Below are positions 29,297 through 50,713 of a stretch of DNA of 64,000 bases, one piece after another. The number at the start of each line of letters is the position of its first letter. The stretch's first letter is position 1. The notes beneath the pieces were generated by a model. That model worked only from the letters and a program-made list of their open reading frames with translations, did no database searches and was not told the DNA's origin. The translations under genes were made by a program, and so were the position numbers. Origin of the DNA: Nitrospirota bacterium (GTDB taxonomy: Bacteria; Nitrospirota; Thermodesulfovibrionia; Thermodesulfovibrionales; Dissulfurispiraceae); contig CAVPZX010000005.1 in NCBI GenBank assembly GCA_963710375.1, positions 128,001-192,000 on the forward strand, written 5' to 3'.

Positions 29297-29437
29297 ATGG
29301 GAACATATACGACATTTCACCCGCATAACAGCAGAAGGAAAAAGACCCACGGCTTTCTTACCCGGATGAGCACCAGCGGGGGCAGAAAGGTGCTGAAGAA
29401 CAGAAGGGCAAAGGGCAGGAAACGTTTGGCAGGCTGA
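29297..29437 (+). CDS. rpmH: 50S ribosomal protein L34, absent from the ORF track
   Basis: [46 protein letters not shown]. Confidence 0.95.
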
Positions 29438-29561
29438 CGGGTTCGTAAAAAAACTCATATGCTGCGTTACGCTTCATGCCTCCTCACTGCGACGTACAAA
29501 AGGTACGTCTCATTCGTCGGCATTCGCGTGCCTTGCCTATGAGCTTTTTACGAACCCGTCA
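29435..29561. mobile_element. Structured palindromic element, family 2 copy D
   Basis: IR TGACGGGTTCGTAAAAA...TTTTTACGAACCCGTCA; homologous to 49511-49677. Confidence 0.85.
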
Positions 29562-29593
29562 ATATTAAACATATGAAGGGGAGGCATTCCTCG

Positions 29594-29803
29594 GTGAAGA
29601 CGTTGCTAATTGCCTTTGTGAAACTATACCGGTACACGATTTCACCTGTATTGCCTTCCAATTGCAGATTCACGCCGTCATGTTCGGAGTATTCCATTGA
29701 GGCATTAAAGGAATACGGTGCGGTCAAGGGCGGCTATCTTACCATTAAAAGAATTTTAAAGTGCCATCCATTTCACCCGGGCGGATATGACCCGGTAAAA
29801 TAA
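29594..29803 (+). CDS. yidD: Membrane protein insertion efficiency factor YidD
   Basis: [36 protein letters not shown] start after GGGGAGG. Confidence 0.93.
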
Positions 29804-29821
29804 ATGTAAAGGATTTTTGTT

Positions 29822-31354
29822 ATGGAAAAAAGGACCTTTCTCGCGATCGCTATTTCTATTGCCATACTGCTTGTATACCAGTATTTTTTTGTGAAACCTG
29901 CAGCACCTCCGGTTACCGGCCGTGGCATTGTAAAGGAAGCCGCTAAAGAGGAAGCGAAACAGGCTTCTGCTACCCCCCCGGCCTTAATCCCAAACACCGA
30001 GGCGACCGAAACGGAAAGAGACGTGGTTGTGGACAGCGACCTGTATACTGCTACCTTAAGTTCCAAGGGTGGCACCATAAAAAGCATTCTTCTTAAGCAG
30101 TACAATGACGAAAGCGGAAAACCGATAGTGTTAAAGAGCGAAGATGTCCTTCCTCCGTTTTCGATCGGGGCGAATGAGGGGTTCCAATTTGCGCATGCTC
30201 CATTCCAGATTCTCGGCAGCAATGTAAAACTCACTCCTGAACTGAATTCCGCATCAATTGCCTTCGACTATTCCGACAATGGAATATCTATCCGCAGGAC
30301 CTATACTTTTCATTATGGCGACTATGCATTTGACCTTAAAGATGAAGTGAACGGTCTTCCATCATATTGGATAACGCTTGGAAAAGATTTCGGCATTTAT
30401 AATAAAGAGACTGCGCGCTCAGTACACTATGGGCCTGTCGTATTGAAGGATGCTGACAGGCTTGAATTTTCTGCGCCCAAATTGAAGGAGCCCAAAATCA
30501 TTAAAGAGGGTGTTAAATGGATTGCACAGGAGGACAAGTATTTCTTTTCTTCCCTGATTCCCAAAGGGCCTGTTGATGAAGTAAGGGTATGGGATCAAAA
30601 CGGTGAGGCGCAGGTGGCTGCGGAATTTAAGGGAGGGACAAATAACTATATGCTTTATGCCGGTCCTAAAGAAAACAACCGGCTCCTGCAATATCATGTA
30701 GGGCTCGAGTACGTGATAGATTTCGGTTTCTTCTCCATTATCGCTCGCCCTCTGTTCTGGGTTTTGAAGCTGTTCTACAAGGTTTTTCATAATTACGGGG
30801 TTGCCATCGTTATTCTTACCACCATAGTGAGGATTCCGTTTATTCCGCTGGTGAACAAAGGGCAGCAATCTATGAAGAAGCTTCAGGATATACAGCCGAG
30901 AATGGCTGAAATCAAGGAGAAATATAAAAATGACCCGCAGAGAATGCAGAAGGAGGTCATGGAGCTTTACAAAAAGCACAAGGTCAACCCGATGGGCGGC
31001 TGCCTTCCCATGGTGCTGCAGATACCGGTCTTTTTTGCTCTTTATAAAGTGCTCCTCATCTCAATTGAACTGAGGGGGGCGCCCTTCATTTTTTGGATCC
31101 ATGATCTATCCTTAAAGGACCCTACGTATGTTCTGCCGGTAGTTATGGGAATTACCATGGTTATCCAGCAGAAGATGACGCCATCCTCCATGGAGCCGAT
31201 GCAGCAGAAAATGATGATGATTATGCCGGTCGTGTTTACGTTCATGTTCCTGAGCTTTCCGTCAGGCCTTGTCCTGTACTGGCTGGTAAACAATGTGTTA
31301 AGCATCGGCCAACAATTCTATACTAACCGGAAGCTGGCAAAGCAAAAAACGTGA
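29822..31354 (+). CDS. yidC: Membrane protein insertase YidC
   Basis: YAGPK, NYGVAIV, NPMGGCLP, QIPVFFALY, GLVLYW. Confidence 0.96.
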   Translation: MEKRTFLAIAISIAILLVYQYFFVKPAAPPVTGRGIVKEAAKEEAKQASATPPALIPNTEATETERDVVVDSDLYTATLSSKGGTIKSILLKQYNDESGKPIVLKSEDVLPPFSIGANEGFQFAHAPFQILGSNVKLTPELNSASIAFDYSDNGISIRRTYTFHYGDYAFDLKDEVNGLPSYWITLGKDFGIYNKETARSVHYGPVVLKDADRLEFSAPKLKEPKIIKEGVKWIAQEDKYFFSSLIPKGPVDEVRVWDQNGEAQVAAEFKGGTNNYMLYAGPKENNRLLQYHVGLEYVIDFGFFSIIARPLFWVLKLFYKVFHNYGVAIVILTTIVRIPFIPLVNKGQQSMKKLQDIQPRMAEIKEKYKNDPQRMQKEVMELYKKHKVNPMGGCLPMVLQIPVFFALYKVLLISIELRGAPFIFWIHDLSLKDPTYVLPVVMGITMVIQQKMTPSSMEPMQQKMMMIMPVVFTFMFLSFPSGLVLYWLVNNVLSIGQQFYTNRKLAKQKT

Positions 31355-31453
31355 AAGGTGAATCGTGAAACGTGAACCGCAAAGACCTTCAAGTCTTTCT
31401 TTCACCTCGGTTCTAATCTTTCCACGTTTCACTCTTCACTTTTCACGCTTCAC
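31350..31453. repeat. Heptamer tandem-repeat hairpin (GTGAANN) filling the yidC-mnmE spacer
   Basis: gtgaaag gtgaatc gtgaaac gtgaacc ... gtttcac tcttcac ttttcac gcttcac; the first unit supplies the yidC TGA. Confidence 0.88.
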
Positions 31454-31459
31454 ATTTTT

Positions 31460-32830
31460 ATGAACGATACAATTGCGGCAATAGCCACCCCCATAGGCGA
31501 GGGAGGGATAGGAATTATCCGGCTTAGCGGCAAAGATGCCGTTGATATTGCCGGTCGAATTTTTTTGTCCCGCGGCGCTAAAACACTCAGGGATGCCCCA
31601 TCCCATACTATCACATACGGGTTTATTGTCGATCCGTCCCAAGGGGGGAAAATAGATGAAGTGCTGGTCACAGTTATGCGTGCGCCGAGGACATACACAA
31701 GGGAGGATGTGGTTGAGATCAATTGTCACGGAGGAATGCTTCCGCTTAAAACAGTGCTTCAGCTGCTTCTCAGGGAAGGGGCAAGGATTGCTGAGCCAGG
31801 AGAATTTACCAGGAGGGCTTTTTTGAACGGCAGGATAGACCTTTCACAGGCAGAAGCGGTCATTGATATCATAAAGGCCAGATCAGACCAGGCAGAACGC
31901 CTGGCCCTTGCCCAGCTGGAAGGGAAGCTCTCCAGGACAATAACAGGGCTTCAGGACCGTATCACGACATTGTGCGCCTACATAGAAGCGCAGATTGATT
32001 TCCCTGAGGATGAACTTGAGACGGTAAGGAAAAATGAAGTTATTGATACAATGAGAACTATCGGTAAGGAATTATTAGACCTTTCTGCCGGTTATGAAGC
32101 AGGCAGATTTTTCAGAGATGGTGTCGCAACCGCTATTGTGGGGAAGCCTAACGTAGGCAAATCATCACTGTTGAACGCCCTTCTCGAAAAGGACCGGGCC
32201 ATCGTTACTGAAATGCCCGGGACGACCAGGGACGTAATAGAGGACACGCTGAACATTGAGGGTCTGCCGTTGCGCATTATGGATACTGCCGGTATACGCG
32301 AGACACATAATCTTGCCGAAGCAGAGGGAGTAAAGAGGAGCCTGAAGGCTATAGAGGGTGCTGATATCGTTATTGCAGTGCTGGACAGCAGCATGCCCCT
32401 TGATAAGGCTGATGAAGAACTGCTTAAGGCGGTTGCTTACAAAAGGACGATTGTCCTCATTAATAAATGTGATATCCGGTCGCCTGATTTCGCTGTTCCC
32501 GACAGCGCAACGAATGTTGTTGAGGCATCGGCATTGACTGGAGAGGGTATCAGTGAATTGAAAGATATGATTTATAGCGTGTGTATTTCTTCCGGAGTTC
32601 ACGGGGAGACTGAAGTCCCTCTCATTACCAACATCAGACACAAGCATTCACTGGACAGGGCCTCGCAGGCGCTTGCCGAGGCAGTAAACGTACTCGAAAA
32701 CGACATTCCACTTGAGATCGTTGCCATGTATGTGCGGGAGGCGCTTGATTGGGTGGGAACAATAATCGGCATTTTTACTACAGAGGATATACTCAATAAA
32801 ATATTCAGCGAGTTCTGTGTAGGCAAGTAA
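31460..32830 (+). CDS. mnmE: tRNA modification GTPase MnmE
   Basis: DTIAAIAT, GKPNVGKSS, GTTRD, DTAG, FCVGK. Confidence 0.97.
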   Translation: MNDTIAAIATPIGEGGIGIIRLSGKDAVDIAGRIFLSRGAKTLRDAPSHTITYGFIVDPSQGGKIDEVLVTVMRAPRTYTREDVVEINCHGGMLPLKTVLQLLLREGARIAEPGEFTRRAFLNGRIDLSQAEAVIDIIKARSDQAERLALAQLEGKLSRTITGLQDRITTLCAYIEAQIDFPEDELETVRKNEVIDTMRTIGKELLDLSAGYEAGRFFRDGVATAIVGKPNVGKSSLLNALLEKDRAIVTEMPGTTRDVIEDTLNIEGLPLRIMDTAGIRETHNLAEAEGVKRSLKAIEGADIVIAVLDSSMPLDKADEELLKAVAYKRTIVLINKCDIRSPDFAVPDSATNVVEASALTGEGISELKDMIYSVCISSGVHGETEVPLITNIRHKHSLDRASQALAEAVNVLENDIPLEIVAMYVREALDWVGTIIGIFTTEDILNKIFSEFCVGK

Positions 32831-32937
32831 GCAGTAAGCAGCAAAAACGGAAAAGAAAAACAGGCTATGTAAAAAAGAATGGATTCCCACCTACGAGGGA
32901 ATCCATTCTTTTTTAAGTCTTTGCTGCCTACTGCCTA
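32828..32937. repeat. Heptamer-arm hairpin (TAAGCAG) enclosing a perfect 18-bp inner hairpin; likely bidirectional terminator
   Basis: taagcagtaagcagcaaaaac / gtctttgctgcctactgccta; inner AAAAAAGAATGGATTCCC-N8-GGGAATCCATTCTTTTTT at 32871-32914. Confidence 0.8.
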
Positions 32938-32943
32938 TTTTTT

Positions 32944-33849
32944 TTACTTTTTCGGGGCCGGTGCAGGTTGCGGCGTAGGCTCCGGGCTTGGGGCCGGCAC
33001 CATCTTAGGGGCGGCAGACAGTTTTGCAAGTTCATCCTTGTTTATGTCGGCCTTGTAATTCTTTTTGAGGCCGTCTATGTATTTATCAAAGTTGCTTTTC
33101 TGTTTTTCGGCTGTCAAACGCTGCATGATCATTCCCTTTACTTTGTCATAATCGACAATCGTTCCTTTGACATCGGTCACCTTGAAAATGTGAATGCCGT
33201 CCTTTAATTTTACAGGCATTCCAACTTCACCCTTCCTTAATTTGAAGACAACATCCTCGATTTCGGGGGCAAGTTCACCCTTCTTGAAGAAACCCATGCT
33301 ACCGCCGGACTTTGCAGATTTTTTGTCCGTCGAAACTTCGGCAGCTACTTTTGCGAAATCCTCGCCGTTCTTGAGCTTTTCAAGAGCTTTTTTCGCATCG
33401 CCTTCATTCAGCACGACTATCTGGCTCAGCTTGATCTGATTGCGCAGCATAAAATCGTCCTTATGGCTGTTGTAATAGTCTGCGGCATCCTTCTCGCTGA
33501 CTTGTGATGTTGCCTCTATCTCTTTTTGAAGCAGCTCGTTTATCAGAGTAATCTTTTTGAAGTCCTCAACCTTTCTCTCGAAATCCTTATTCTTGTCCAA
33601 TCCCATTTTCTTGGCTTCAAGATACAGCATTTCTTTTTTGACCAGTTCGTCCACAAACCGTGAGGTGCCTTCAGGCCCCTGGAAGAATTGTTTTGCCATT
33701 TCCGGCAGCGCATTCATTTCTTCCTGCACATCCTCTTTGGTGAGGGTGTCGCCATCAATTTTTACTACGTAACTGCCTTGCATCCCTCCGCCTTTTGAAC
33801 AGGAGGCAACAAAAATAAAGGCCACAAACAATAACAATATTTTTCTCAT
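32944..33849 (-). CDS. Parvulin-type peptidyl-prolyl isomerase lipoprotein (PrsA/PpiC-like)
   Basis: Lipobox VASC; GEDFAKVAAEVSTD...GGSMGF...GIHIFK. Confidence 0.88.
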   Translation of the reverse strand: MRKILLLFVAFIFVASCSKGGGMQGSYVVKIDGDTLTKEDVQEEMNALPEMAKQFFQGPEGTSRFVDELVKKEMLYLEAKKMGLDKNKDFERKVEDFKKITLINELLQKEIEATSQVSEKDAADYYNSHKDDFMLRNQIKLSQIVVLNEGDAKKALEKLKNGEDFAKVAAEVSTDKKSAKSGGSMGFFKKGELAPEIEDVVFKLRKGEVGMPVKLKDGIHIFKVTDVKGTIVDYDKVKGMIMQRLTAEKQKSNFDKYIDGLKKNYKADINKDELAKLSAAPKMVPAPSPEPTPQPAPAPKK

Positions 33850-33930
33850 TATCAGGAATCTCCTTTTAAAATAGTAGTCTGAAACTCTAACATAATTTAG
33901 CCGTAAAAGTAAAAAATAGCGCTAAATGTG

Positions 33931-34117
33931 CTGCAATTCAGACAGAACAGGGTAATTTTTCTTTGCAAGCGATTAGTCCACTGTGCCAGTGCTGCTGTCT
34001 ATACGGAAAATCGGCCTGGTTCCAGATATATATCTGTGGGCTCGGCGTTACTCGCCCACTGCAGATAACCCAGGCGCTCGACTGCAGAAAAACAACCCTA
34101 TTCTGTCTGAATAGCAG
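33931..34117. mobile_element. Palindromic element carrying the family 1 core between unrelated terminal repeats (copy C)
   Basis: IR CTGCAATTCAGACAGAACAGGGT / ACCCTATTCTGTCTGAATAGCAG; core TGTGGGCTCGGCGTTACTCGCCCACT..GATAACCCAGG shared with copies A and B. Confidence 0.75.
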
Positions 34118-34212
34118 ATAAATGGGTAATGCGTTATGAATAACAATAAATCTATAGCCTGTAACTATAACCTGATGATCTCTGTATAATAAATATCGGA
34201 GTACGGTTATCA

Positions 34213-35268
34213 ATGAAAAAAGTAGTGGTCGGCATGAGCGGCGGGGTGGATTCATCCGTTACGGCGTATCTCCTGAAAGAGCAGGGATATGAGGTTGAGG
34301 GGGTGAGTTTTGTTCTTTATGAGGCGCGCCTAAAAACCCTCTTTTCCGGTTGCTGTTCTCTTGAATCTATCGACGATGCCCGAAGGACCGCAGGACATAT
34401 CGGTTTAAAACACACGGTAATTGATCTGAGAGAGGAATTCCTGGAGCAGGTAATAGAGCCGTTTATTGATGCCTATAAGAAGGGAATTACTCCAAATCCA
34501 TGTATTCTCTGCAACAAGCATATAAAATTCCCCCATCTCCTGAAGATCGCGACCCAGAAGGATGCTGCGTATATTGCAACAGGTCATTATGCGAGAGTTA
34601 TTGATAAAGAACTAAAGAAGGGAATCGACGTGCGAAAGGACCAGTCTTATGTGCTATATGTCTTGAGGCAGGAGGAATTGTCCAGACTTGTACTGCCCCT
34701 CGGAGTCAAGACAAAGCAGGAGGTGCGTGAGATAGCAAAAATGCTGAATCTCCCCGCTGCCAAAAGGCCTGAGAGTCAGGAAATTTGCTTTATTGGCGAT
34801 AAGAGCTACTGTGCCTTCATGGAGGGTCTGGCCGAGAAAATGGAAGGGCGGATTATAGATGTTGAAACAGGCAAAACATTGGGCAGTCACAAGGGAATCC
34901 ACCTCTATACAATTGGTCAGAGGAAAAGAATGGGGATTGCCGTCGGCAAGCCGCTCTACGTGGCAGGAATAGATCCAGCGCAGAATGCTATTTACATAGG
35001 ACCGAGAGAAGCTGCGATGAGGAGGGCCTTTGAAGTTAAAGAAATTAACTGGCTGGCGCCGGCTCCTGCCGGACCCTTCAGGGCAACGGTGAAAATAAGG
35101 TCTACAATGAGAGATGAGCCCGCCACTATAACGGCTGTTGGAGATGACCTTGCCGAAGTTGTATATGTTGAGCCTCAGTGGGCGCCTGCGCCGGGGCAGA
35201 GCGCTGTGTTCTATAACGGCGATACAGTTTTTGGGGGGGGGATTATCCGGTCCGTGCATGAAAGGTGA
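34213..35268 (+). CDS. mnmA: tRNA 2-thiouridylase MnmA
   Basis: MSGGVDSS, TPNPCILCN, ATGHY, KDQSY, ESQEICF, APGQSAV. Confidence 0.97.
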   Translation: MKKVVVGMSGGVDSSVTAYLLKEQGYEVEGVSFVLYEARLKTLFSGCCSLESIDDARRTAGHIGLKHTVIDLREEFLEQVIEPFIDAYKKGITPNPCILCNKHIKFPHLLKIATQKDAAYIATGHYARVIDKELKKGIDVRKDQSYVLYVLRQEELSRLVLPLGVKTKQEVREIAKMLNLPAAKRPESQEICFIGDKSYCAFMEGLAEKMEGRIIDVETGKTLGSHKGIHLYTIGQRKRMGIAVGKPLYVAGIDPAQNAIYIGPREAAMRRAFEVKEINWLAPAPAGPFRATVKIRSTMRDEPATITAVGDDLAEVVYVEPQWAPAPGQSAVFYNGDTVFGGGIIRSVHER

Positions 35269-35374
35269 AACTCTTGTAATTGTCACACAATTTTTTCTTT
35301 TTTATTCGATAAGTGTTATGTATTTTTTTGTTGCATGTAATACGTTGCAGTAATAATTTAAAAGGAGGCAGGCT

Positions 35375-37385
35375 TTGTTCGACTTGCGAAGGCTGATTCG
35401 TCAATATTGGTTTTTCGCCGCTGTTATCATACTGACAATCGCCAAACTACTATTGATTAGTGGACAAGAGCTGCGTCCGAACTTGAGCGGCTATGATGAC
35501 CTTCATTTCCTATCTGTTGCAGAAAAACTTAAGACATCTTGTTGGCTGGGAAGCTATGATCAGCAGACTCTTGTCGAACGGGATGTTCTTCCCTCTATGG
35601 ATTGCTGTTACCAGTTCAGCAGGCATGCCTCTCCTTTTCTCCCAACATGTTCTTTATGTAATCGCCTGTGCAGTAATGGTTACCGCCCTGCGTCCTTCAC
35701 TGCAGACATCAGGAACGAGGCTGTTTCTGTATGCCTTTCTGCTGTTCAACCCCATTAGCTATGCCGTTCCCTATACTACACAGGTCACGAGGGAGAGCGT
35801 TTATTGTTCCCTTACACTTCTTGTTGTTGCATGTGCTGCAGGTCTTATGCTTAGGATAGAATGGCCGGTTAAAAAAATATGCCAATGGTCGATAGCTCTG
35901 GGGTTATTACTGTCTTCTTTCTGGCTTACCCGCGAAGAGGGCGTGTGGATCACCCCGCTGTTGGTTATAATGCTCGGCTCTGCAATGGTTTTTCTATGGA
36001 GAAAGAAACCGGTTCAGTGGTCCAAGATGTTGATTCTAGGAGCGTTACCCATCATTATTTTGGTTGTCTGTGTGGGAACTGTAGCAGGCATTAATAAGAT
36101 TCGTTATGGCATTTTTGCCACTGTTGAATTAAAAAATTCCAACTTCATTGATGCATATGGAGCGCTGTCGCGTGTTAAATCGTCCAGCTGGAAACAATAT
36201 TATCCGGTGCCAAAGGATGTTAGAGAAAAAATTTATGCTGTTAGTCCGGCTTTCAGGGAAATCGAGCCGTTTCTGGATGGTTCGCTCGGGGAAAGATGGA
36301 TGGCTTATGGTTGCAATCAAGCCGGTCTTTGTGATGACATAGGAGGCGGGTGGTTTCTGTCAGCATTCCGTGAGTCCGTCACCGCAGCCGGCCATCATAG
36401 TTCAGGAACTGCCGCCATGGCATATTATCGCCGCCTAGCTTCAGAAATCAATGCGGCTTGTGACAGCCATTTGTTGGATTGCCTTCCCCCTCGTTCTACT
36501 ATGATGCCGGTATGGCACAGTGAGTATAACAAACAATTCCTCGATACGATACTGTTGGCGGCAAGCAACATAACAGGATTATCCGGCTTCACTGTTCAGC
36601 CGGAGCCTAGGATAATGCCGACGGATAAGCTCGATTATTTCAGGGCGATGACAAGGGAACGGATTTCTTCTCCAAGTACAGGGTTGTCTATTTCAGGATG
36701 GGTGGTCGATCTACAGGGATTGGCCTTAAGATTTTCCATAATCAATAAAAATGGTGCTAAAGCAGATTCCGCGGTTGAACGTGAATTTTCTCCCGGGCTC
36801 TACGAATTTTTTCTGAAGCGGGGTCAGGATATCCCTTCAGCCAGAAGAGCCGGCTTTAACATCATCACGTCCTGTTCTTCGGATTGTTCCCTGCTTATCG
36901 AGTCTGATAAAGGTATATCAAAAAACATTCCCCTTGATGGAACCATTGAAAACAGTCTGGACAACTCGCTGGCCCTTCATCTGAATTTCGTAAAAGCTGT
37001 CCCGATTTATCCAACAATCTCTACGTCAGTTGAGAGGACGAAACTTCTTTTATTGGATAAAGTCGGCAAATTCTACCAGCGTATAATGCCGGCCTTGGCC
37101 ATTCTCTCACTTGCCGGATATTTTCTGGTCACCTACTTTGTTCTGCAAAGGCGGCTCGCTCCGGAGCGATGGCTGATTGCGACATCTCTGTTTATATCGA
37201 TCGCAGGAAGGATTGTGCTCTTATCAATTATAAACGTTTCGTTATATCCGAGCATACATATTCGGTATCTCTCGCCGGTGTATCCCTTGCTGCTGCTTTT
37301 TGAATTCTTAGCGGTAACTGACTGTCTTGTCCTGGTTCGCACACGTTTTATTTCAACAAGTTATAAGGACAGTTTTTTAAAATAA
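35375..37385 (+). pseudogene. Multi-TM GT-C-like membrane protein split by a +1 frameshift near 35577
   Basis: AAGGAGG-TTG start. YDDLHF...WLGSYDQQTLV in the first frame continues as GMFFPLWIA...TREEG...RYLSPVYP in the second. Confidence 0.65.
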
Positions 37386-37480
37386 ATATTAAAAGCCCAA
37401 CCGCACCGAATCAGAAATACCCGGCAATGACTTCCGATATCCATTTTTACTCCTCTAGGTCTGTTCCACTGCGATGAATT

Positions 37481-38395: not shown

Positions 38396-38411
38396 GTTTT
38401 CTCCGCGATTA

Positions 38412-39461: not shown

Positions 39462-39481
39462 TAAAATATTATCTCCGGTTT

Positions 39482-40965: not shown

Positions 40966-41755
40966 AGAATTGGGAGCATGTTATGAATGTAAAGCCCTTT
41001 TCGACAGATGTAGAAATCAGAGCGTTGAAAAAGTCTCTTGCCCTCGTTGAACCGCAGAGATTAAAATAAATCATATTGCGTATTGCCCGGGGCGGGGTTA
41101 TTGCCCTATGAGAACTTTGGACCAAATCAAAGCAATGGCAGTAGAACATTACAATAACAGAGTCGGCCAAATATCTGGAAATAACTCTCTTAATAGAAGA
41201 ACCCAATAACATGAAATAGGGGCTTCCAAATGGAATTTTCATTACCCCGATACTGCTGACAGGAATTCTGATAAAATTGTTCTCCTGGACCTGGGCCTCG
41301 TTAAGTCGTTTGTATCTGCCTGCTCTAACTATGAAGTCCACCTGGGAAGAATCATAACGGAACCATTGCCGAATACAGGCAAGTGCATAATCACTAATTT
41401 TAAAAGCCGGAGCCCTGAAGCCCTCAACTTTAAAACCCTTCCCGGCAATTTTATTGTAAGACCGCGCTACTTCTTCTTCTACTTCCTTATCCGAAAGGCT
41501 GTCCAAAAACTTAAAAGTACGCTCGGCAACTGGGTGGGAGTATCCGTGCGATGCCACTTCATGGCCATGGCCGATAATGTCTTTAACAAGATCAGGATAA
41601 TCATTAACAATTTGGCAGGTAACAAAAAATGTCCCCTTAATTTTATATGCATCCAGTAGTTCAAGAAAACTATTAACACCTTTTTCGGTATGCGGACCAA
41701 AATATTCGACATCGCAGGTAAACATGAAATACTTATTTTTCACAACTGCCGCCAT
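40919..41755 (-). CDS. Polysaccharide deacetylase family protein
   Basis: FTCDVE, TFFVT, HEVASHGYSH, GFRAP, YDSS; start placed at ATG 41755. Confidence 0.87.
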   Translation of the reverse strand: MAAVVKNKYFMFTCDVEYFGPHTEKGVNSFLELLDAYKIKGTFFVTCQIVNDYPDLVKDIIGHGHEVASHGYSHPVAERTFKFLDSLSDKEVEEEVARSYNKIAGKGFKVEGFRAPAFKISDYALACIRQWFRYDSSQVDFIVRAGRYKRLNEAQVQENNFIRIPVSSIGVMKIPFGSPYFMLLGSSIKRVISRYLADSVIVMFYCHCFDLVQSSHRAITPPRAIRNMIYFNLCGSTRARDFFNALISTSVEKGFTFITCSQFCDILQKDEDNRAGIL

Positions 41756-41813
41756 ATATTGCTTGAGTGATAACTCATACCGTCCGGATAAACCGGGCCG
41801 GAGTATGTCGTGC

Positions 41814-42872
41814 CTATTTCCGAAGCCATGTCTTGAGAACAGTCTTTGAAAAGTTGAGCCCGTAAGACCAATTCTGCCCCTTTTTGCTATCTCCGGATAA
41901 TCTCCGCAGCACTGTGACAGGCGCATCTGAAATCCGTATCCCCTTCCTTGCGGCATCGATGATCAACTCCGCCGTATGAAACTGGTCCTGCAAGAGAAGG
42001 AGTTTCTGTAATGAGGAGACGCGGAAAGCCCGGAATCCGTTAGAACAATCGGTTATATGCGTTCCCGCCAATATGTTAATAACGAAAGTGAAGACGTGGA
42101 TGCCGACCCACCGAAACGCGCTGTCCTTTTCTCTTCTCCCCAGTACCCTGGAGCCGATCACGATATCCGCCTTGTCCGCAAGAATCGGTCCAACAAGAAG
42201 AGCGATCTCTTCCGGCAGGTGCTGTCCATCACCGTCCATCGTGACAACAACCGAGGCCCCCCCCATAGCCGCTATATCATAGCCCAGGCGGAGCGCCGCC
42301 CCTCCGCCGCGGTTAATGGGATTAGAAACAACTGGATAGCCGTGGCTTTTGACAACCTCGACGGTGTTGTCAGTGCTCCCGTCATCCACTACGAGAACGC
42401 CCAGTTCTCGCCCCGCGACAGCCCGTGGCATTTTAGGGAGGACTATATCCAGATTCTCAGCTTCATTCAAGGCCGGAATGATTACAGTAATCTCCTTTAT
42501 CCCATTTAGCCCTCCTCGGCTCTGCGCAAAGCTCTTGAGAGCCAACTTCCTCACGAGGAGATCGAATTGGAAAGATTTTTGCGTGTCCTTGGACCTAAGA
42601 CCGAAAATGAGGACCCACAGCAGCAGGTTTGAAAAGACGAGCAGCATGATGAGCCGGCCTAACGCCTTGTCTTCAAGTGACAGCATACCGGCAACGATAT
42701 TGATGCTGTTTGGCACAGCAGCGACAGTAATCAGCGCTACACCAAACAGGGACATAAGAAAGAATTCGCGCCGCCGTATAAAGTGAGTCCTGAACCGCCC
42801 AAACGACCAAAGCATGAGGATCGCTCCGGACAATACCCCTAACAACCGCAGAAACACTAACTGGTTTTCCAT
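41814..42872 (-). CDS. DPM1/GtrB-like family 2 glycosyltransferase with an N-terminal DUF2304-like membrane domain
   Basis: Three N-terminal TM helices, then IIPALNE, VVDDGSTD, MDGDGQH, IGSR, TDCSNGFRA. Confidence 0.87.
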   Translation of the reverse strand: MENQLVFLRLLGVLSGAILMLWSFGRFRTHFIRRREFFLMSLFGVALITVAAVPNSINIVAGMLSLEDKALGRLIMLLVFSNLLLWVLIFGLRSKDTQKSFQFDLLVRKLALKSFAQSRGGLNGIKEITVIIPALNEAENLDIVLPKMPRAVAGRELGVLVVDDGSTDNTVEVVKSHGYPVVSNPINRGGGAALRLGYDIAAMGGASVVVTMDGDGQHLPEEIALLVGPILADKADIVIGSRVLGRREKDSAFRWVGIHVFTFVINILAGTHITDCSNGFRAFRVSSLQKLLLLQDQFHTAELIIDAARKGIRISDAPVTVLRRLSGDSKKGQNWSYGLNFSKTVLKTWLRK

Positions 42873-42912
42873 AGGCCCTCTGTCCGTTGCAATTCTATGA
42901 AAGAGGAGGTGA

Positions 42913-44062
42913 TTATTTCCACTTTACGCCACGGAAAATCGCGTCCCTGTTTATGCTGTCTTTATGCGCTTCGATAACCTTCAGCATATTGTCGAGGACG
43001 GCATCGGTTAGGAAGTGAGGCTCAAGGCCCAATTCAAGCAGACCTGAATATTTGGGGTTGTAATAATGTTCTTCCTTTTCAATTCTAGGATTTTCAATAT
43101 GCTTGACTTTAATATGGTAACCCATTCGTTTGCCGGCGTCCCGCACTCTTTCGGCGAGTTGATTGACACTGAACATTTCTGTAACTTGATTAAATATCCT
43201 GAGTTCGCCGGCAGGCTGCAGGGTGCATAGCTGACAAATAGACGCACTGCATGGAATCCCTGATATTCAAATAACCCCGTGTCTGCCCGCCCTTTCCGTA
43301 CACCGTAAGCGGATGGCCGGAAACAGCCTGCACTAAAAACCGGTTTAAAACAGTCCCGAAAATCTCATCATAGTGGAAATTAGGCATTAAACGTTCATCC
43401 ATGTCAACCTCTTCAGTGGAGATACCATATACCGGTCCCTGCATGAGGTCTGTAACGCGTAACTTCCAGTTTCTGACGTAGAACCACAAAAGGTCTGTAT
43501 CCTGTATCTTAGTTGTATGGTATAGGGACCCAGCTTGCCTGGGAAACAGGAATTTATCGCGTTTGCCCTTATGATCAATTTCGAGCCAACCTTCTTCTAT
43601 GTCTATGTTGGGGGTTCCGTATTCGCCCATCGTTCCCAGTTTCACGATGTGGCACTCCGGAGCAAACTCTTTTACTGCATAAACCACATTAAGAGTTCCT
43701 GAAAGATTATTTTGCAGCGTGAAAGCCGCGGTATCCCTGCTTATCATTGAATAAGGCGCAGATGGCTGTTCGGCATAATGGATTACAGCATCAGGATGAT
43801 ATTCATTAAAGATCTTTGACAGAAATGCGTATTCGGTAATATCGCCAATACATATCTTGATTTTTTTTCCTGTAAGACCCCGCCATAAATCTGCTCTCAG
43901 CTTTAGATTGGGGCAGTGAATTAACGGTTCACAATCGAGTTCCATAGCGGCCTTTCGTTTAAAATAATTGTCTACAATAATGACCTTATGTCCCCTATTT
44001 GAGAAATACATTGCTGTGGGCCACCCGAGATAGCCATCGCCGCCTAATATCAGAACTCTCAT
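42913..44062 (-). pseudogene. sqdB: UDP-sulfoquinovose synthase (SqdB/SQD1/Agl3 family) with a +1 frameshift near 43215
   Basis: GGDGYLGWPTA, HYAEQPSAPYS, KLGTMGEYGTPN, YHTTK, TDLMQGPVYG, FGTVLNRF; the other frame continues AGELRIFNQVTEMFSV...NPRIEKEEHYYN. Confidence 0.85.
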
Positions 44063-45147
44063 GAATTATGCCGTCCCGGTAATTTAATGTAGACGTTTTC
44101 CGGTAACACATTCGGGAGCATGAGAAATGATACGATCTCGTTTTTTTTCATAGGAAGAATGTTTGCTGAATTATAGGTCTGGAGAACCGGAGTGAGTGAA
44201 ATATCCCTATAGGTATAATCGATATCCATATATATATTCTTGAAGGCCGGTAAAACGACAAGGAATTGTTCGGAATCGAAAGCCCTCCTGGTTTCTTCAT
44301 CATTCATAAGTTCTTCGTAAAATTTTTCTCCCGGCCGCGCACCGACTTCAACAATTGCCATTTTTTCAGGATGATGGTTATATAATGGGGCTAAAAGGGA
44401 TATCATCGCTTCTGCCAAGTCTTTTATATTTAATACCGGCATCTTTGTAATAAACACTTCACCGCCTTTAGCCAGGAACATACTTGTTATAATGAGACAT
44501 ACAGCATCCTCAAGAGTCATTACAAAGCGTGTCATTGTCCGGTCTGTCAGAGTTATCGGACCGCCTTTCATTATCTGCCTGCAAAAAATAGGTATCACCG
44601 ATCCGCTTGAGCCGGCAACATTTCCAAACCGTGTTGACGCAAATGTAGGCGGCTTGTCTTTCTGGCGCAAGGCATTAGCGGCTGTTATAAGGCGTTCTCC
44701 CATTAGTTTAGATGTCCCCATTACATTCGTTGGATTAACTGCCTTATCGGAACTTGTGAATAAAACCTTGCGGACCCTGTTTGCAAGTGCGGATTTGATA
44801 ACATTCTGCACACCGATTATGTTTGTCTGTACCGCATCAAAAGGGGACCGCTCACACAGAGAAACGTGTTTATAAGCTGCAGCATGAAAGACGAAATCGA
44901 GGCCCTCAAACATGTGCATCATCTTTTCATCATCTCTTACATCAGCCAGAAAAGCCTGAAACCCGGGTTCGTCCCTATATGATTCTTCAAGGGAAAAAAG
45001 TGCGCTTTCATTATTGTCCAGGGCTCTAACTTCTTTAGGGGAATATTGCAGCAGTTGCCGCACTAACTCCTGACCGATTGTCCCAGCGGCACCCGTAACA
45101 GCTATGCTGCAATTTTTAAAAAAGGCATCCAACGTCAACATCGTCAC
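44059..45147 (-). CDS. CapD/FlaA1-like NDP-sugar 4,6-dehydratase
   Basis: TGAAGTIG, HAAAYKHV, SSDKAVNP, RFGNV, RPGEK. Confidence 0.9.
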   Translation of the reverse strand: MTMLTLDAFFKNCSIAVTGAAGTIGQELVRQLLQYSPKEVRALDNNESALFSLEESYRDEPGFQAFLADVRDDEKMMHMFEGLDFVFHAAAYKHVSLCERSPFDAVQTNIIGVQNVIKSALANRVRKVLFTSSDKAVNPTNVMGTSKLMGERLITAANALRQKDKPPTFASTRFGNVAGSSGSVIPIFCRQIMKGGPITLTDRTMTRFVMTLEDAVCLIITSMFLAKGGEVFITKMPVLNIKDLAEAMISLLAPLYNHHPEKMAIVEVGARPGEKFYEELMNDEETRRAFDSEQFLVVLPAFKNIYMDIDYTYRDISLTPVLQTYNSANILPMKKNEIVSFLMLPNVLPENVYIKLPGRHNS

Positions 45148-45511
45148 GATTTATTTACACCTAATTCTCTTCCCTTAAAAGGGGGAGCATTGACGTTATT
45201 CGCTATCATTGACTCTTTTCACTCAGCGACAACTTTCCAGCCACTCAACTGTTTGTAATATAATATCACTTTTGCCCAAAATAATTTGAAAAAAACTAAC
45301 ACTCTTTTATAACGCTTCTGCCGATCCACGGAGGGACAACTATAATTGCATTTTGCAGCATATTCAACTGCTTCCTGCAACTGTTTCCCGGAAAAGTTAA
45401 AACATCCGCACGTTCGGGGGAAAATGAAGCAATGAATGAAATACTCGACCTTTTTAAAATGAGCATGCGATATGTTATTTTAAATGTACTCAAAGTAAGG
45501 AGGCGGACGTC

Positions 45512-45964
45512 ATGCAGGGAAGCATAGTTTCCATAAATGTCAGCGATAAAAAGGGCGTAAGAAAAAAGCCTGTCGATGAAGTTACAATCGGCGAAAACTT
45601 CGGAATCGAGGGTGATGCCCATGCTTCATCGGAATGGCACAGGCAGGTAAGCCTGCTCGCTCTTGAGAGCATACAAAAAATGCAGGCAATGGGACTCAAG
45701 GTCCAGCCTGGTGATTTTGCCGAGAACATTACTACGGAGGGGCTCGATCTCCCCGCTCTTCCAATCGGCACAAGGATTCGCCTTGGCAGTGACGTTATCG
45801 GCGAGGTAAGCCAAATCGGCAAGGAATGCCATACGCGGTGCGCTATTTACTACGAGGCTGGTGATTGTGTAATGCCGAAAGAAGGTATTTTTATATGGAT
45901 ACTAAAGGGCGGCGTGGTCAGAAAAGGAGATAAAATAGACGTTAGCATGCGTGACACTTTATGA
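45512..45964 (+). CDS. MOSC domain protein
   Basis: GDAHA, RQVSLL, GDFAENI, IGKECH, CVMPKEG. Confidence 0.9.
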   Translation: MQGSIVSINVSDKKGVRKKPVDEVTIGENFGIEGDAHASSEWHRQVSLLALESIQKMQAMGLKVQPGDFAENITTEGLDLPALPIGTRIRLGSDVIGEVSQIGKECHTRCAIYYEAGDCVMPKEGIFIWILKGGVVRKGDKIDVSMRDTL

Positions 45965-46440
45965 TCACCGTTGCTGTGCTTACATTGAGTGATAAAGGCT
46001 CCAGGGGGGAGCGGGCGGACCAGAGCGGACCCTTGATCGCAGATATCATTAAAGGTATAGGCAGAATCGACTATTATGATACGCTGCCCGATGAGCGGGA
46101 GTTGATAAAAAAGAGACTCCTGGAATATGCCGGCAAGGTAGACCTTGTCCTTACTACCGGCGGCACCGGTCTTTCTCCAAGGGATGTGACTCCGGAGGCA
46201 ACGCTTGATGTGATCGAACGGCAGGTGCCGGGCATTGCAGAGGCCATGAGGATGGAGGGGATGAAAAAGACCGGCAGGTCAATGCTGTCAAGAGCTGTTG
46301 CTGGTGTGAAAGGACAAACGTTGATCATAAACCTGCCAGGGAGCCCCAAAGCGGTCAAGGAAAATCTTGAGACGATTCTTGAGGTCCTTCCCCACGCTGT
46401 TGAGAAAATAAAAGGCGACACCAAGGATTGCGCGCGATGA
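45961..46440 (+). CDS. mog: Molybdopterin adenylyltransferase (MogA/MoaB)
   Basis: TLSD, TTGGTGLSPRDVTPEAT, NLPGSPKA. Confidence 0.92.
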   Translation: MITVAVLTLSDKGSRGERADQSGPLIADIIKGIGRIDYYDTLPDERELIKKRLLEYAGKVDLVLTTGGTGLSPRDVTPEATLDVIERQVPGIAEAMRMEGMKKTGRSMLSRAVAGVKGQTLIINLPGSPKAVKENLETILEVLPHAVEKIKGDTKDCAR

Positions 46441-47147
46441 AAGACGTCTCTTTTACCCTGTCTTTTTTTGCAGGAGTCCTTTCGTTTCTTTCCCCCTGTG
46501 TTTTGCCGCTCGTCCCTGCATATCTTTCGTTTGTGACAGGGCTTTCCCTGGCAGAGCTTAAATCATCTCCACGCCTGTCAAAGGCCATGGGCAACACGTT
46601 TGCCTTCATAATGGGATTTTCGACGATTTTTGTTGCGCTCGGCGCCTCTTCATCTTTCATTGGCAGCCTGTTCCTGAGGTATCAGGACTATCTCAGGATA
46701 GTGGGGGGCATCCTGACTATCGTATTCGGTTTCTTTATTGCCGGTTTTTTGAAACTTGATTTTCTTATGAGGGAAAAGAGATTCCATATGGATAAGGGGC
46801 CGGCGGGTTATGTTGGAGCATATTTAGTCGGTATGAGCTTTGCTGCCGGATGGACACCCTGTATTGGCCCTATTCTCGGCACTATCTTGATTTATGCAAG
46901 TTCAAAGGCATCGGCAACGTACGGCTTGAAACTCCTTTCCGTTTACTCACTGGGGCTTGCCATTCCGTTTATACTTTCGACACTTGCCATCAATGCGTTT
47001 CTAAGCCATGCAAAAAAGATTTATAAATTCATGAATGTAATAATGATTTTCAGTGGTCTGATATTGATAGCATTCGGCATTATGCTTTTGACCAACAGGG
47101 TCAGTATGCTGTCAGCCATGCTTCCCGATTTGGGAATTAAGTTTTGA
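46437..47147 (+). CDS. ccdA: Cytochrome c biogenesis protein CcdA
   Basis: SFLSPCVLPL and GWTPCIGPIL. Confidence 0.92.
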   Translation: MKDVSFTLSFFAGVLSFLSPCVLPLVPAYLSFVTGLSLAELKSSPRLSKAMGNTFAFIMGFSTIFVALGASSSFIGSLFLRYQDYLRIVGGILTIVFGFFIAGFLKLDFLMREKRFHMDKGPAGYVGAYLVGMSFAAGWTPCIGPILGTILIYASSKASATYGLKLLSVYSLGLAIPFILSTLAINAFLSHAKKIYKFMNVIMIFSGLILIAFGIMLLTNRVSMLSAMLPDLGIKF

Positions 47148-47152
47148 GGACG

Positions 47153-47288
47153 AAAGATGGAAGGTGAGAGCGTGAGAAGTTGTGAAGGTGAGAGTAAAAC
47201 AGAAGTTGAGAAGTTGAGAAGTTGTGAGGTTGGGATTTTGCTCATCTTCGCACCTTCGCACCTTCTCACGCTCTCAACTTCCATCTTT
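47153..47288. repeat. Octamer tandem-repeat hairpin (AAGNTGNG) inside the lptE 5' coding region
   Basis: aaagatgg aaggtgag agcgtgag aagttgtg aaggtgag ... ctcatctt cgcacctt cgcacctt ctcacgct ctcaactt ccatcttt. Confidence 0.9.
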
Positions 47289-48146
47289 TGTTTCTGCTGC
47301 ATTCTTTGTTCCGGCTGCGGGTATACCATTCAAACGAGGGCCAACCTTCCCTTTGAGACCATTTCTATCGGCACGATAGAGAATAAAACATCTGAGCCCA
47401 AACTTCAGGACAGGTGTCACGTGGCATTGGCAGAGACCTTTTCCCAACACGGTTACGAGGTAAGCTCCATTGCCCGCTACAGGCTCCAGGGTGAGATATA
47501 CCGGTTCGAGTTGATCCCTACAACCGAAGTGAACCTCGCTGCGACACAATATCAGATCGTGATGAAGGGGAGCTTTAAACTTGTTGATACGGAAAGCGGC
47601 AAATCGATTCCACTTGGGGCGGACAGCCCGTTTATCACTTATTTCAACGCTAACACCACTGACCCGCTCGAGGAAATTATGACACAAAAAGAGCTCGCGG
47701 AGGCCAGCGCTATGGCAAATCTGGCGCAGACGTTAGTCAGCCTTGTTACTTACAATACTCCCAAAAATTTTGCGAGCCTGCTGTTTAAGCCTGACGATAT
47801 AAAAAATGTGGAGGGCCTTATCGTCAAGCTGAGGGATGCAAAAGACCCGCTCTCGGAATATTTACGGGACCAATTTACTCCGGACCTTCAACGCAAAATA
47901 GATGCCTATAACCAGTTCGATTATTCGGCAAAGGAGCTCAAGACTGCACTGGCCAATGCGTTAAACAGTATAATCCAGAACAAGGACATTTTTGATGAAA
48001 AGCGTTTTGCCCATGTCATGCTCAGCGATGAGACCATGCAGCTTATCAGACAGAATGCGCAAGGCGGTAATCGGGTGAAACTCAACCGGATACTTCTTGA
48101 GGAGGCGTATCCGGACGAACTGCAAAAACCGGCAGGCAATAGGTAA
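47157..48146 (+). CDS. lptE: LptE-family lipoprotein with a long C-terminal extension
   Basis: Lipobox SGCGY, ENKTSEP, located directly upstream of holA; about 120 extra C-terminal residues. Confidence 0.72.
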   Translation: MEGESVRSCEGESKTEVEKLRSCEVGILLIFAPSHLLTLSTSIFCFCCILCSGCGYTIQTRANLPFETISIGTIENKTSEPKLQDRCHVALAETFSQHGYEVSSIARYRLQGEIYRFELIPTTEVNLAATQYQIVMKGSFKLVDTESGKSIPLGADSPFITYFNANTTDPLEEIMTQKELAEASAMANLAQTLVSLVTYNTPKNFASLLFKPDDIKNVEGLIVKLRDAKDPLSEYLRDQFTPDLQRKIDAYNQFDYSAKELKTALANALNSIIQNKDIFDEKRFAHVMLSDETMQLIRQNAQGGNRVKLNRILLEEAYPDELQKPAGNR

Positions 48147-48156
48147 TGGAAAATAT

Positions 48157-48241
48157 GAAGGTGAGAAGATGGGAAGTTGCGAAGTTGAGCAAACCGGCCT
48201 TCGTAAGTCACACCTTCACACGTTCTCAACTTCTCATCTTC
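48157..48241. repeat. Octamer tandem-repeat hairpin between lptE and holA
   Basis: gaaggtga gaagatgg gaagttgc gaagttga ... cacacctt cacacgtt ctcaactt ctcatctt. Confidence 0.88.
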
Positions 48242-48250
48242 GGATATTGA

Positions 48251-49153
48251 ATGAGCATAAAGCAATTTCATCAGGAACTTTCCAAGGGGATGCCCTCCCC
48301 GGTGTATCTCTTATACTCATCAGAAGATTTTCTGCTCTATGAGGCTATCTCCGGAATAAAAGAGCAGTGTAGGGATACAGTTGGATTTAATTTTGACGTG
48401 TACGACATTAAGTCGCCTGACGATACGATTCCGGTAGAACAGATTGTGGATATCGTGAACACGATGCCGTTTATATCCGCGCGAAGGATAGTTGTTATCA
48501 ACAACATACAGAAACTTGCCAAAAAGGATGTGCAAAAGATCGAGGCTTACCTGCTTAATCCTGCTGATACTGCGCTTTTGGTAATGCTCCATACAGGTGC
48601 ATCGCCAAAGCTTTTTAGTGCAGCGGCATCAGGAAGCATTAAGACAATTGCTCTTACAGTCCAGGAAAAGGACCTTCACCTGTGGATAAAGGAGCAGGCC
48701 AAACAGAAGAAGGTGCGCCTTACCGACAGCGCGGTCGAATATCTTATTACTATGGCCGGGACTGACCTTGGCATGCTCTCTGCAGAAATAGAAAAGCTTG
48801 CATGTTTTATCAGCGACCGTGTCATTGACGTTGCCGACCTGAAGAGCATCATCTATTCTGGAGTTGAGTATACCGCCTTTGACCTTCTTGATGCGCTTAA
48901 GAGAAAAGATGCGAAGGAGGTATTCAGGATATTTGAGAACGTCACTAAAAATCAGGAACCTCAAATGCTGCTCGGCGCTCTGAATTATTATTATGGACGG
49001 CAAGGGTACGCTTACCAGAAAAAAGATGCATCCGGGCCGGTCCAGACAGTCCGGCTCTTGCATGAGGCGGACTTTGCGATAAAGTCATCGCACAAGTATG
49101 TTATCGAAGATCTGCTTGTTAAGCTGCTTAAAACTCCGAAGATGAGAAGTTGA
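48251..49153 (+). CDS. holA: DNA polymerase III subunit delta
   Basis: PVYLLYS, TMPFISARRIVVI, GTDLGMLSAEIEKL, AFDLLDAL; lptE-holA / rpsT synteny. Confidence 0.88.
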   Translation: MSIKQFHQELSKGMPSPVYLLYSSEDFLLYEAISGIKEQCRDTVGFNFDVYDIKSPDDTIPVEQIVDIVNTMPFISARRIVVINNIQKLAKKDVQKIEAYLLNPADTALLVMLHTGASPKLFSAAASGSIKTIALTVQEKDLHLWIKEQAKQKKVRLTDSAVEYLITMAGTDLGMLSAEIEKLACFISDRVIDVADLKSIIYSGVEYTAFDLLDALKRKDAKEVFRIFENVTKNQEPQMLLGALNYYYGRQGYAYQKKDASGPVQTVRLLHEADFAIKSSHKYVIEDLLVKLLKTPKMRS

Positions 49154-49205
49154 GAAGATGTGAAGGTGTGATCTCAATTTCCCAACCTCCCAACTTCTCA
49201 CCTTC
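49138..49205. repeat. Octamer tandem-repeat hairpin between convergent holA and rpsT
   Basis: gaagatga gaagttga gaagatgt gaaggtgt ... cccaacct cccaactt ctcacctt; supplies the holA stop. Confidence 0.85.
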
Positions 49206-49494
49206 AATCTTTTTTCTGCGCTGCGTTTGCTTTTTTTGCGAGCTTTGAGATCTTTCTGGATGCGGTATTCTTATGAATTATACCCTTAGACGCAGCAGTG
49301 CTGATAGTGCTGACAGCCTCTTTCAAAGCCTTTCCTATCTCTTCTTTGTTTTTTCCGGATAGCACGGACTCTGCTTTTTTGGTTTGGGTCTTTATGCTTG
49401 CCCGCACCGACTGACCGCGCAGTCTTCTTTTTTCATCCTGGCGGGCTTTCTTTATAGCCGAGAGATTTTTTTTAGGTGCTGACTTAGCTGCCAC
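49204..49494 (-). CDS. rpsT: 30S ribosomal protein S20
   Basis: SAIKKARQ...KGIIHKNTASRKISKL; GTG start after GAGGAGGA. Confidence 0.93.
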   Translation of the reverse strand: MAAKSAPKKNLSAIKKARQDEKRRLRGQSVRASIKTQTKKAESVLSGKNKEEIGKALKEAVSTISTAASKGIIHKNTASRKISKLAKKANAAQKKD

Positions 49495-49510
49495 TATATA
49501 TCCTCCTCGT

Positions 49511-49677
49511 GACGGTCTCGTAAAAAGCTCATATACTACGTTCCACCCCAGCAAGTCTGTGACTTGCCAGGGACCCCGGGCGTTGCACTGCGTACTCAGT
49601 CACTGCGGCGTACCCAACAGTACGCCTCATTCCTAAGTACTTGCGCGCCTTGCCTATGAACTTTTTACGAGACCGTC
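49511..49677. mobile_element. Structured palindromic element, family 2 copy E
   Basis: IR GACGGTCTCGTAAAAAG...CTTTTTACGAGACCGTC; homologous to 29435-29561 with an extra internal hairpin. Confidence 0.85.
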
Positions 49678-50699: not shown

Positions 50700-50713
50700 A
50701 AAAACAAAAAAGA

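Follow-up and report, generated by a model that had tools for sequence, protein, structure and literature searches.

A pair of similar hairpins, D and E, lies in the window (the whole 64,000-nt stretch of a Nitrospirota genome that was analysed), D at the end of the gene for ribosomal protein L34 and E beside that for S20. Their stems differ by compensatory base changes, and a preliminary description read them as an uncharacterised structured RNA or a mobile element of the ssDNA type recognised by a protein. What, then, are D and E, and does their position matter?

Layout of copies D and E

Every stem pair and every ‘linker’ word on which that reading was built, three of each, is present in the sequence as described, and the two loci are laid out as follows.

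29297..29437, + strand: rpmH (L34; TIGR01030), adjoining D
29436..29560, + strand: copy D, hairpin core of 125 nt running from the left TIR arm to the inner TIR copy (127 bits)
29436..29456, + strand: TIR-derived left arm of D with one additional A, assigned from sequence; the TIR is that of the autonomous IS below
29476-29480/29519-29523: middle stem of D
29491-29497/29503-29509: apical stem of D
29541..29560, - strand: inner inverted copy of the left TIR in D, closing the hairpin (from sequence and folding)
29594..29800, + strand: yidD (TIGR00278), downstream of D
49204..49494, - strand: rpsT (S20; TIGR00029), with its SD at 49502-49508
49511..49677, + strand: copy E, hairpin core with nested insert, 167 nt, in the orientation of D
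49543..49579, + strand: nested hairpin in E, 37 nt, CACCCC...GGGACCCC, of a second family
49592-49596/49636-49640: middle stem of E
49607-49613/49620-49626: apical stem of E
49659..49677, - strand: inner inverted copy of the left TIR in E (from sequence and folding)
49690..49708, - strand: candidate right TIR of E in decayed form, matching at 10/19 positions, a level also given by other eroded copies

D does overlap the rpmH stop codon (TGA at 29435-29437, D starting at 29436, 2 nt in common) and E does lie 2 nt from the rpsT SD on the minus strand; rnpA is absent between rpmH and yidD. The nested hairpin of E is flanked by near-duplicated 5-mers (49538-49542 and 49580-49584), giving 42 nt extra in total, and this insert recurs at the identical site in another copy of the element (C3:49720) and in one copy in genome G003. 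In D the right TIR is not recognisable (best match 8/19), and no target duplication was seen at either copy.

Copy number, anatomy and insertion footprint

The element is real, although not a matter of two copies: D and E are 2 of 24 copies of a hairpin MITE in the source genome, which are short (59-167 nt), non-coding and either intergenic or overlapping a gene end by at most 13 nt, with one in a 16S-tRNA spacer. Its members occur widely across Nitrospirota and Desulfobacterota, with an estimated ~1100 stretches and with matches in 41 of 121 genomes of the phylum, and the core is also found with other ends and in tandem arrays. Intact relatives measure ~151 bp: a left 19-bp TIR is followed by a hairpin, which an inner copy of the TIR closes, then by a short spacer and the right TIR, and the whole is flanked by a target duplication of 6-7 bp with the consensus AWNNWT. 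The right TIR was present at a match of at least 13/19 in 85 of 100 complete relatives drawn from 118 loci, and these 85 served as the test set for duplications. An exact target duplication of 6 or 7 bp flanked 50 of the 85, comprising exact 6-bp repeats in 39 (against 0.6 expected from mismatched pairs) and exact 7-bp repeats in another 11; the first base was A in 37 of the 39 and the last base T in 38. In the source genome the right TIR is clearly kept in two of the 24 copies, whose duplications match at 6/6 and 5/6 positions.

No case was seen in which the inner repeat acts as the right end with an adjoining duplication. An IS200/IS605-type insertion after a TGAC target was also ruled out, since the T upstream of the element belongs to the AWNNWT duplication as its final base. 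The exact three-TIR pattern matched the source genome alone among 151 genomes of the order, a sample in which its genus has no other member, and a full-length copy had no BLASTN match in plasmid or phage records. Literature searches returned no published description of the family; the TIR string was absent from the supplements searched, in which the Geobacter alignments are letter-spaced and thus not amenable to string matching.

Host genes and occupancy of sites

D follows rpmH in the direction of transcription and E precedes rpsT; relative to the transcripts the two are on opposite strands. Among genomes of the genus the rpmH site is filled in three of eight, and the rpsT site is filled in two of seven, holds a stub in one and other sequence in four; the element is missing at both sites in most relatives, and the contigs of close relatives omit D precisely after the rpmH stop codon. 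Across orthologous sites generally (59 relative loci; 19 dropped, their ends not being located by the pattern) the relatives often show empty sites, stubs or unrelated hairpins. The earlier suggestion of mobility is upheld by filled, empty and stub alleles together with target duplications, and it is the ssDNA part of that suggestion that is not supported: the TIRs, the 6-7-bp length of the duplication and the existence of a matching DDE IS all indicate classical TIR transposition, and the hairpin was found at none of 31 Y1-transposase loci.

The supposed link to ribosomal protein genes did not extend beyond D and E: of the 42 genes next to 21 other copies, 35 had a Pfam match, and none matched a ribosomal protein or transposase family. 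The placement of D and E therefore looks incidental, and the listing of neighbouring genes, proposed as a route to the mobiliser, did not yield one.

Fold and covariation

Folding z-scores were between -7.9 and -10.4, and none of 200 shuffles folded as well. Covariation was assessed in an alignment (A1) of 83 rows, made up of 15 of the 24 own copies, insert-bearing and deleted ones being left out, and 68 of 84 usable external copies. As RNAalifold recovered only 25 pairs from A1, pairs were counted on a hand-drawn 44-pair structure derived from single-copy folds and mutual information, a choice that favours the structure; on this basis 74 same-branch joint changes were counted against 9 by chance, which bears out a conserved fold with true compensatory change. 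Paired changes also occur between copies at one locus across species (13 double changes at nine loci, six of them at D). The conserved words had been described as fixed linkers, and although the words are there they are not single-stranded: TCACTGC and TCATTC are partly paired, and one pair there covaries (columns 55-86). Rfam returned no match at gathering or E-value thresholds, apart from one 13-bit chance hit. Of the findings named in advance as counting against a new element, a link to a known IS family arose in part, through the IS1182-like IS set out below.

On the strand opposite to D the conserved mismatches of these words take the form of G.A pairs, and wobble pairs are biased 27:6 toward that strand; wobbles and mismatches alike favour it. 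Folded as DNA, it is also the better of the two strands in 81 of 83 copies, and in the source genome it is mostly not the mRNA strand. A K-turn reading of the G.A loop was rejected by eye, the 3-nt bulge being lacking. The inner repeat tracks the left TIR of its own copy (6.2 of 7 within a copy versus 5.5 between copies), and the outer right TIR does not (3.37 versus 3.38). Where the left arm of a copy in genome G171 matches the TIR at only 9-16 of 17 positions, 16-17 of the 17 pairs are nevertheless Watson-Crick (in 13 of 14 sense-strand rows). Arm-to-arm copying by itself accounts neither for the persisting internal mismatches nor for the wobble bias.

The probable partner insertion sequence

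An autonomous IS of 1.89 kb with the TIRs and duplication of the MITE occurs in four copies in G171 (L172, L174-L176), a genome that also holds 79 hairpin-model matches; the AWNNWT duplication is exact at three copies and 5/6 at the fourth. Its transposase, a single ORF, carries the IS1182-family domains DUF772 and DDE_Tnp_1_6. Its best NCBIfam match is NF033551 (E 4e-39), at 134.7 bits against a cut-off of 270, and for this reason we call it IS1182-like rather than filing it as an IS1182 member; identity to annotated IS1182 proteins on plasmids is ~25%. The size of the IS and its 6-7-bp duplication are presumably also compatible with the ISNCY ISDol1 group, although as to sequence kinship NF033593 scores only 50.6 bits (cut-off 325). 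The TIR profile matched in 25 of 26 loci of transposase homologues at 50-96% identity, and in none of three loci of a 22%-identity IS1182 or nine other loci; Nitrospirota homologues bear the TIR too. The unclassified IS1182-like clade to which the transposase belongs comprises >4000 protein clusters; in several metagenome contigs with the IS the flanks are mismatched. IS1272 is described as making no duplication and targeting inverted repeats (PMC5678879), unlike the partner IS with its AWNNWT duplication.

The partner IS lacks the hairpin core. Its transposase was not found in the source genome, where a DDE_Tnp_1 match fell below cut-off, or in viral contigs. A search of 40 relatives gave just a 22% relative lacking the TIR, and among MITE-bearing genomes, of which many are incomplete, the transposase was not found in 19 of 24 and in 16 of 19. 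The connection of MITE and IS is likely, judging from shared ends and footprint.

Origin and alternative readings

We consider it very probable that D and E are eroded copies of the ~151-bp MITE, likely moved in trans by an IS1182-like DDE transposase. With that transposase missing from the source genome and no recognisable right TIR, they are likely immobile remnants. The transposase would insert copies that survive mostly at gene ends, where insertions may spare genes; the unpaired right TIR would then be deleted, fold-back copying of arm onto arm and gene conversion between copies could maintain the hairpin, and the fold taken up by the strand opposite D may be under some selection as well. 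Bacterial MITEs such as ERIC/IRU, RUP, NEMIS/Correia and Nezha are summarised in PMC3733652 as non-coding elements of 70-300 bp with 15-30-bp TIRs, gene-adjoining, strongly folding and with TIRs matching a transposase-coding IS, and the present family shares size class, TIRs, absence of coding capacity, nearness to genes, strong fold and IS-matching TIRs. It differs in having three TIR copies (left, inner inverted and right), a hairpin closed by the inner copy and not by the right end, a 6-7-bp AWNNWT duplication and an interior that does not derive from the partner IS.

Regulation of rpmH and rpsT by a structured RNA of their own, for example a ribosomal-protein leader or an sRNA, would account for the strong covariation and for the closeness of E to the rpsT SD, and is nevertheless largely refuted and very improbable: 22 of 24 copies lie elsewhere, D and E differ in side and transcript strand, most relatives lack the element at both genes with no conserved place upstream of one ribosomal-protein operon, the TIRs and duplications mark a transposon, and Rfam gave no match. 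Host selection may instead retain copies as gene-end RNA hairpins that stabilise or process polycistronic mRNA, which would supplement the MITE origin and not replace it. In favour are the D strand on the mRNA in 16 of 20 copies between co-oriented genes (p 0.012, three gene calls hand-corrected), the persistence of copies at orthologous sites across species, together with the double changes there, and such effects of MITEs as stated in PMC3733652; against it are the even strand counts in Desulfobacterota (9 versus 9), a favoured folding strand that is mostly not the mRNA strand and the many empty, stub or otherwise occupied sites, and we hold it to be possible though somewhat unlikely.

Less likely still is an older REP/REPIN-like core that spreads as ssDNA by an HUH-type or unknown factor and was captured repeatedly between IS ends, DDE transposition being one route. 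REP/REPIN insertion by RAYTs is not known to leave a DDE-type fixed duplication, unlike the 6-7-bp duplications here. Like REP/REPIN-RAYT and CGTC-tagged REPs, as treated in PMC3733652 and PMC6006769, the family sits at gene ends, forms tandem arrays, conserves certain mismatches, has arms that match within each copy and carries a CGTC word in the core; it differs in its much longer single hairpin, TIRs and duplications. Such spread would fit the recurrence of the same core words between differing outer arms in other families of Nitrospirota, the tandem arrays built from 150-175-bp units and the copy-specific, perfectly paired arms seen in G171, the G.A-type mismatches and the better DNA fold of the opposite strand. 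It would also fit core words seen by eye in the Geobacter metallireducens repeats Gmet_R1001-R1024, ‘predicted short RNA elements’ of 2009 that are intergenic multicopy palindromes of 110-116 nt (PMC2700814) and are there, in the account given of them, presented as RNAs without mobility or covariation analysis. By eye, R1022 has an apical GCGTAC/GTACGC with flanking CAATATCTGCGT and GCCTTGATCTTG in common with A1 rows, and the hairpin core resembles these repeats, although by the same comparison their ends are not the TIR and most apical stems are GTAG-type. Weighing against this reading, the core adjoins none of 30 Y1-transposase loci in five core-bearing genomes, nor the sole Y1 gene of the source genome, which carries its own GGGGTCAG ends; RAYT/TIRYT as mobiliser found no support in these searches. 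Clusters of recurring ORFs at the 118 loci, inspected by eye, gave no prominent transposase or nuclease, divergent arms mostly still look TIR-derived, and slippage can yield tandem arrays. It is equally doubtful that the ~85-nt core, one strand of which has two tandem G.A pairs and a fixed AAG/AAC internal loop, represents a protein-recognised fold of ancient origin common to a Nitrospirota/Desulfobacterota repeat superfamily. Such a core would rewrite its own arms so that any flank, different IS ends included, forms a perfect stem, admit smaller hairpins at fixed sites and hitch-hike on several transposases; if true, the element would be both modular and selfish, and a second factor, not of the DDE type, would serve its maintenance or spreading.

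Implications

Read as an IS-mobilised MITE, the family of D and E is ordinary in kind and large in extent, and through it an unclassified IS1182-like clade can be assigned its ends and target. It also cautions that strong covariation by a ribosomal protein gene can stem from a transposon remnant and mislead searches for RNA motifs. With arms that stay perfectly paired after the TIR has drifted and internal mismatches that persist, it offers a natural system in which fold-back DNA repair can be told apart from selection on structure.

Copies D and E and their distribution

Window 29436-29560 (+): copy D, abutting rpmH
Window 49511-49677: copy E, beside rpsT

The stems and linker words reported for D and E in the preliminary description agree exactly with the sequence, as do their positions, D having 2 nt in common with the rpmH stop codon and E lying 2 nt from the rpsT Shine-Dalgarno (SD) sequence; 42 extra bases within E had been overlooked. 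On either strand, folding of both copies is far stronger than that of shuffled sequences (z -7.9 to -10.4); the minus strand folds better than the plus strand, at -66.3 vs -56.1 kcal/mol for D and -93.8 vs -74.2 kcal/mol for E, and an Rfam search with the two elements gave no family match. The preliminary description also missed that the family is genome-wide: BLASTN and nhmmer located 24 loci in the 3.19-Mb source genome, 22 of 118-167 nt and two with an internal deletion, and an arm-profile search of this genome gave no more strong copies. D was matched in 9/9 genomes of the genus and 1/31 other relatives, and a covariance model of the family had matches in 41/121 genomes of the phylum. Scanning with an exact pattern gave 118 loci (~1100 stretches estimated), and nearly all of the 80 listed were titled Desulfobacterales, Syntrophales or delta-proteobacteria.

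Anatomy and partner insertion sequence

The D/E family very probably originated as a MITE, a small non-coding transposon. In external copies the full element, 151-153 bp long in 58/85, comprises a 19-bp left terminal inverted repeat (TIR; profile consensus GACGGCTTCGTAAAAAGTC), a hairpin closed by an inner inverted TIR copy, ~8 nt and a right TIR, the last present in 85 of the 100 complete loci. Exact 6-bp flanking duplications were found at 39 of these 85 (0.6 expected) and exact 7-bp duplications at 11 more, with consensus AWNNWT. The inner repeat tracks the left TIR copy by copy and the right TIR does not; in the source genome only 2/24 copies, D and E not among them, keep the right TIR. 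The family agrees with every testable MITE criterion in PMC3733652. No description of this TIR family was found in the literature searched, although ISfinder or further supplements may contain one.

The Desulfobacterales genome G171 contains four copies of a 1.89-kb insertion sequence (IS) with the same TIRs, three of them with an exact AWNNWT duplication and all without the hairpin core (left TIR arm to inner TIR copy). The IS encodes a 582-aa protein that combines DUF772 with DDE_Tnp_1_6 and scores 135 bits against the IS1182 model, under the cut-off of 270, and the IS is therefore termed IS1182-like and not assigned as a member. The TIR profile matched 25/26 loci of homologues of this protein and 0/3 loci of a distantly related IS1182; the TIR also occurs with the homologues from two Nitrospirota genomes. 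The partner transposase was not found in the source genome (98.8% complete) and is missing from most MITE-bearing genomes searched, with any match in 5/24 and 3/19.

At C2:572644-572806 in the source genome and its orthologues L260, L276 and L293, the halves of the 6-bp duplication vary between species in step, left equalling right in 3/4 genomes, a pattern that points to more than one insertion at the same site or to conversion between the repeats. At C2:605661-605779 a related hairpin with a Geobacter-family GTAG-type apical stem stands where genome G005 has this MITE, and at C5:402751 this TIR is followed by a different internal palindrome. By eye only, the core resembles the Geobacter Gmet_R1001-1024 repeats in supplement S4 of PMC2700814.

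Other repeats and genes

Window 49543-49579: CACCCC-hairpin-GGGACCCC piece, 34-40 nt, 20 sites genome-wide
Window 1844-2025, 25008-25189, 33931-34117, 14154-14319: other long intergenic palindromes
Window 8602-8778, 22271-22415, 28318-28412, 31344-31454, 47150-47291: hairpins with arms of tandem 7-8-nt words, at gene ends
Window 48148-48260, 49116-49206, 50708-50828, 55583-55697: more such hairpins at gene ends
Window 2945-4306 (-): ORF containing five degenerate repeats of 81 nt, spacing 126-414 nt
Source genome C2:218524-221850 (locus L034): lone Y1 transposase gene bounded by GGGGTCAG terminal inverted repeats of its own

The CACCCC-hairpin-GGGACCCC pattern gave 21 hits, of which one probably arose by chance, against 2 in a shuffle; the piece occurs seven times in this MITE and, by eye, 13 times in other palindromic repeats, and at one position orthologous copies differ in whether they carry it. 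The palindromes at 1844-2025, 25008-25189 and 33931-34117 have an internal segment in common. The ORF probably encodes a beta-propeller repeat protein, and L034, with its Y1 gene and GGGGTCAG ends, fits the TIRYT description in PMC6006769.

Insertion sites

The proposed link to ribosomal protein genes did not extend beyond D and E: 0/42 genes flanking 21 other copies match a ribosomal-protein family, and a role as dedicated regulator of ribosomal proteins is very improbable. Pfam matches in 35 of these 42 include argH, clpS/clpA, pheS/pheT, mutL and flgI, and one copy sits between 16S rRNA and a tRNA. What unites the copies is their location at gene boundaries: as a rule the left end falls -13 to +6 nt from a stop codon or next to an SD. 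At the rpmH site, 3/8 genomes of the genus carry a copy, and the site is empty in 5/5 genomes outside it. Two studies have contigs that differ little in the rpmH flank and that lack D from position 29437. Among seven genomes the rpsT site is filled in two and holds a left stub in one; the remaining four have other sequence there, in many cases an unrelated hairpin.

The source genome has no rnpA between rpmH and yidD (window 29437-29594), nor do the 11 family genomes in which the locus occurs; genome G025 has the gene there. D occupies the vacated rnpA slot but postdates the loss. Neither RNase P RNA (RF00010) nor RnpA (PF00825) was found in the source genome; 4/4 family genomes, but not G025, have a PF08745 (HARP-type) gene, and Thermodesulfovibrionales are among the HARP carriers listed in PMC12153264.

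Covariation, strand preference and upkeep of the hairpin

On a hand-drawn structure of 44 pairs, the covariation noted between D and E held in 83 aligned cores: both partners vary in 22 of the pairs (191 cells, against 46 for shuffles), and changes in both partners fell on the same branch of the tree 74 times against 9.2 +/- 3.8 under random re-pairing (0/5000). External rows were chosen by a pattern in which some of the left arm and of the core is fixed, and invariance there is partly built in. G171 cores in which just 9-16/17 positions of the left arm agree with the TIR nevertheless form 16-17 Watson-Crick pairs in 13/14 rows. Some G171 copies form tandem arrays; those at L356, L360, L361 and L363 have 3-5 core hairpins in units of ~150-175 bp, and their arms are perfectly paired and specific to the locus.

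Conserved non-pairs at columns 48/91, 50/90, 52/88, 53/87 and 59/83 are T.C or C.T on the strand on which D reads; on the opposite strand they are G.A pairs, of which two are tandem. The opposite strand folds better in 74/83 copies as RNA and 81/83 as DNA, a difference to be read against shuffles that lean ~2 kcal/mol likewise. Orthologous copies at nine loci gave 13 double changes (6 of them at D), 27 C.A states (opposite-strand wobbles), 6 G.T and 20 other mismatches, counts that are states, not events, some of which could be carried by gene conversion.

The copies may serve the host as mRNA hairpins: in the source genome 16 of the 20 co-oriented ones lie on the sense strand, but elsewhere the split is 9 vs 9, with no strand lean. 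A separate, ssDNA route of spread for the core we consider improbable; similar cores with other ends speak for it, but no Y1 transposase adjoins the core at any of 31 loci.

Under the MITE origin, the transposase would bind a full-length copy at its outer TIR pair and insert it at an AT-rich 6-mer, and insertions at stop codons and in short spacers would survive. The right TIR, outside the hairpin, would later be deleted, and graded remnants in genome G006 suggest that this deletion followed insertion; at times the whole hairpin is lost, leaving a stub. A nested 36-nt insert is present or absent at one position among orthologous copies. Pairing would most likely be kept by copying of one arm onto the other together with sequence exchange between copies, and the wobble bias, like the persistence of the G.A loops, suggests that selection on the fold of one strand also contributes. 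We give this account of hairpin upkeep, by arm copying, exchange between copies and selection on one strand, roughly even chances of being correct.
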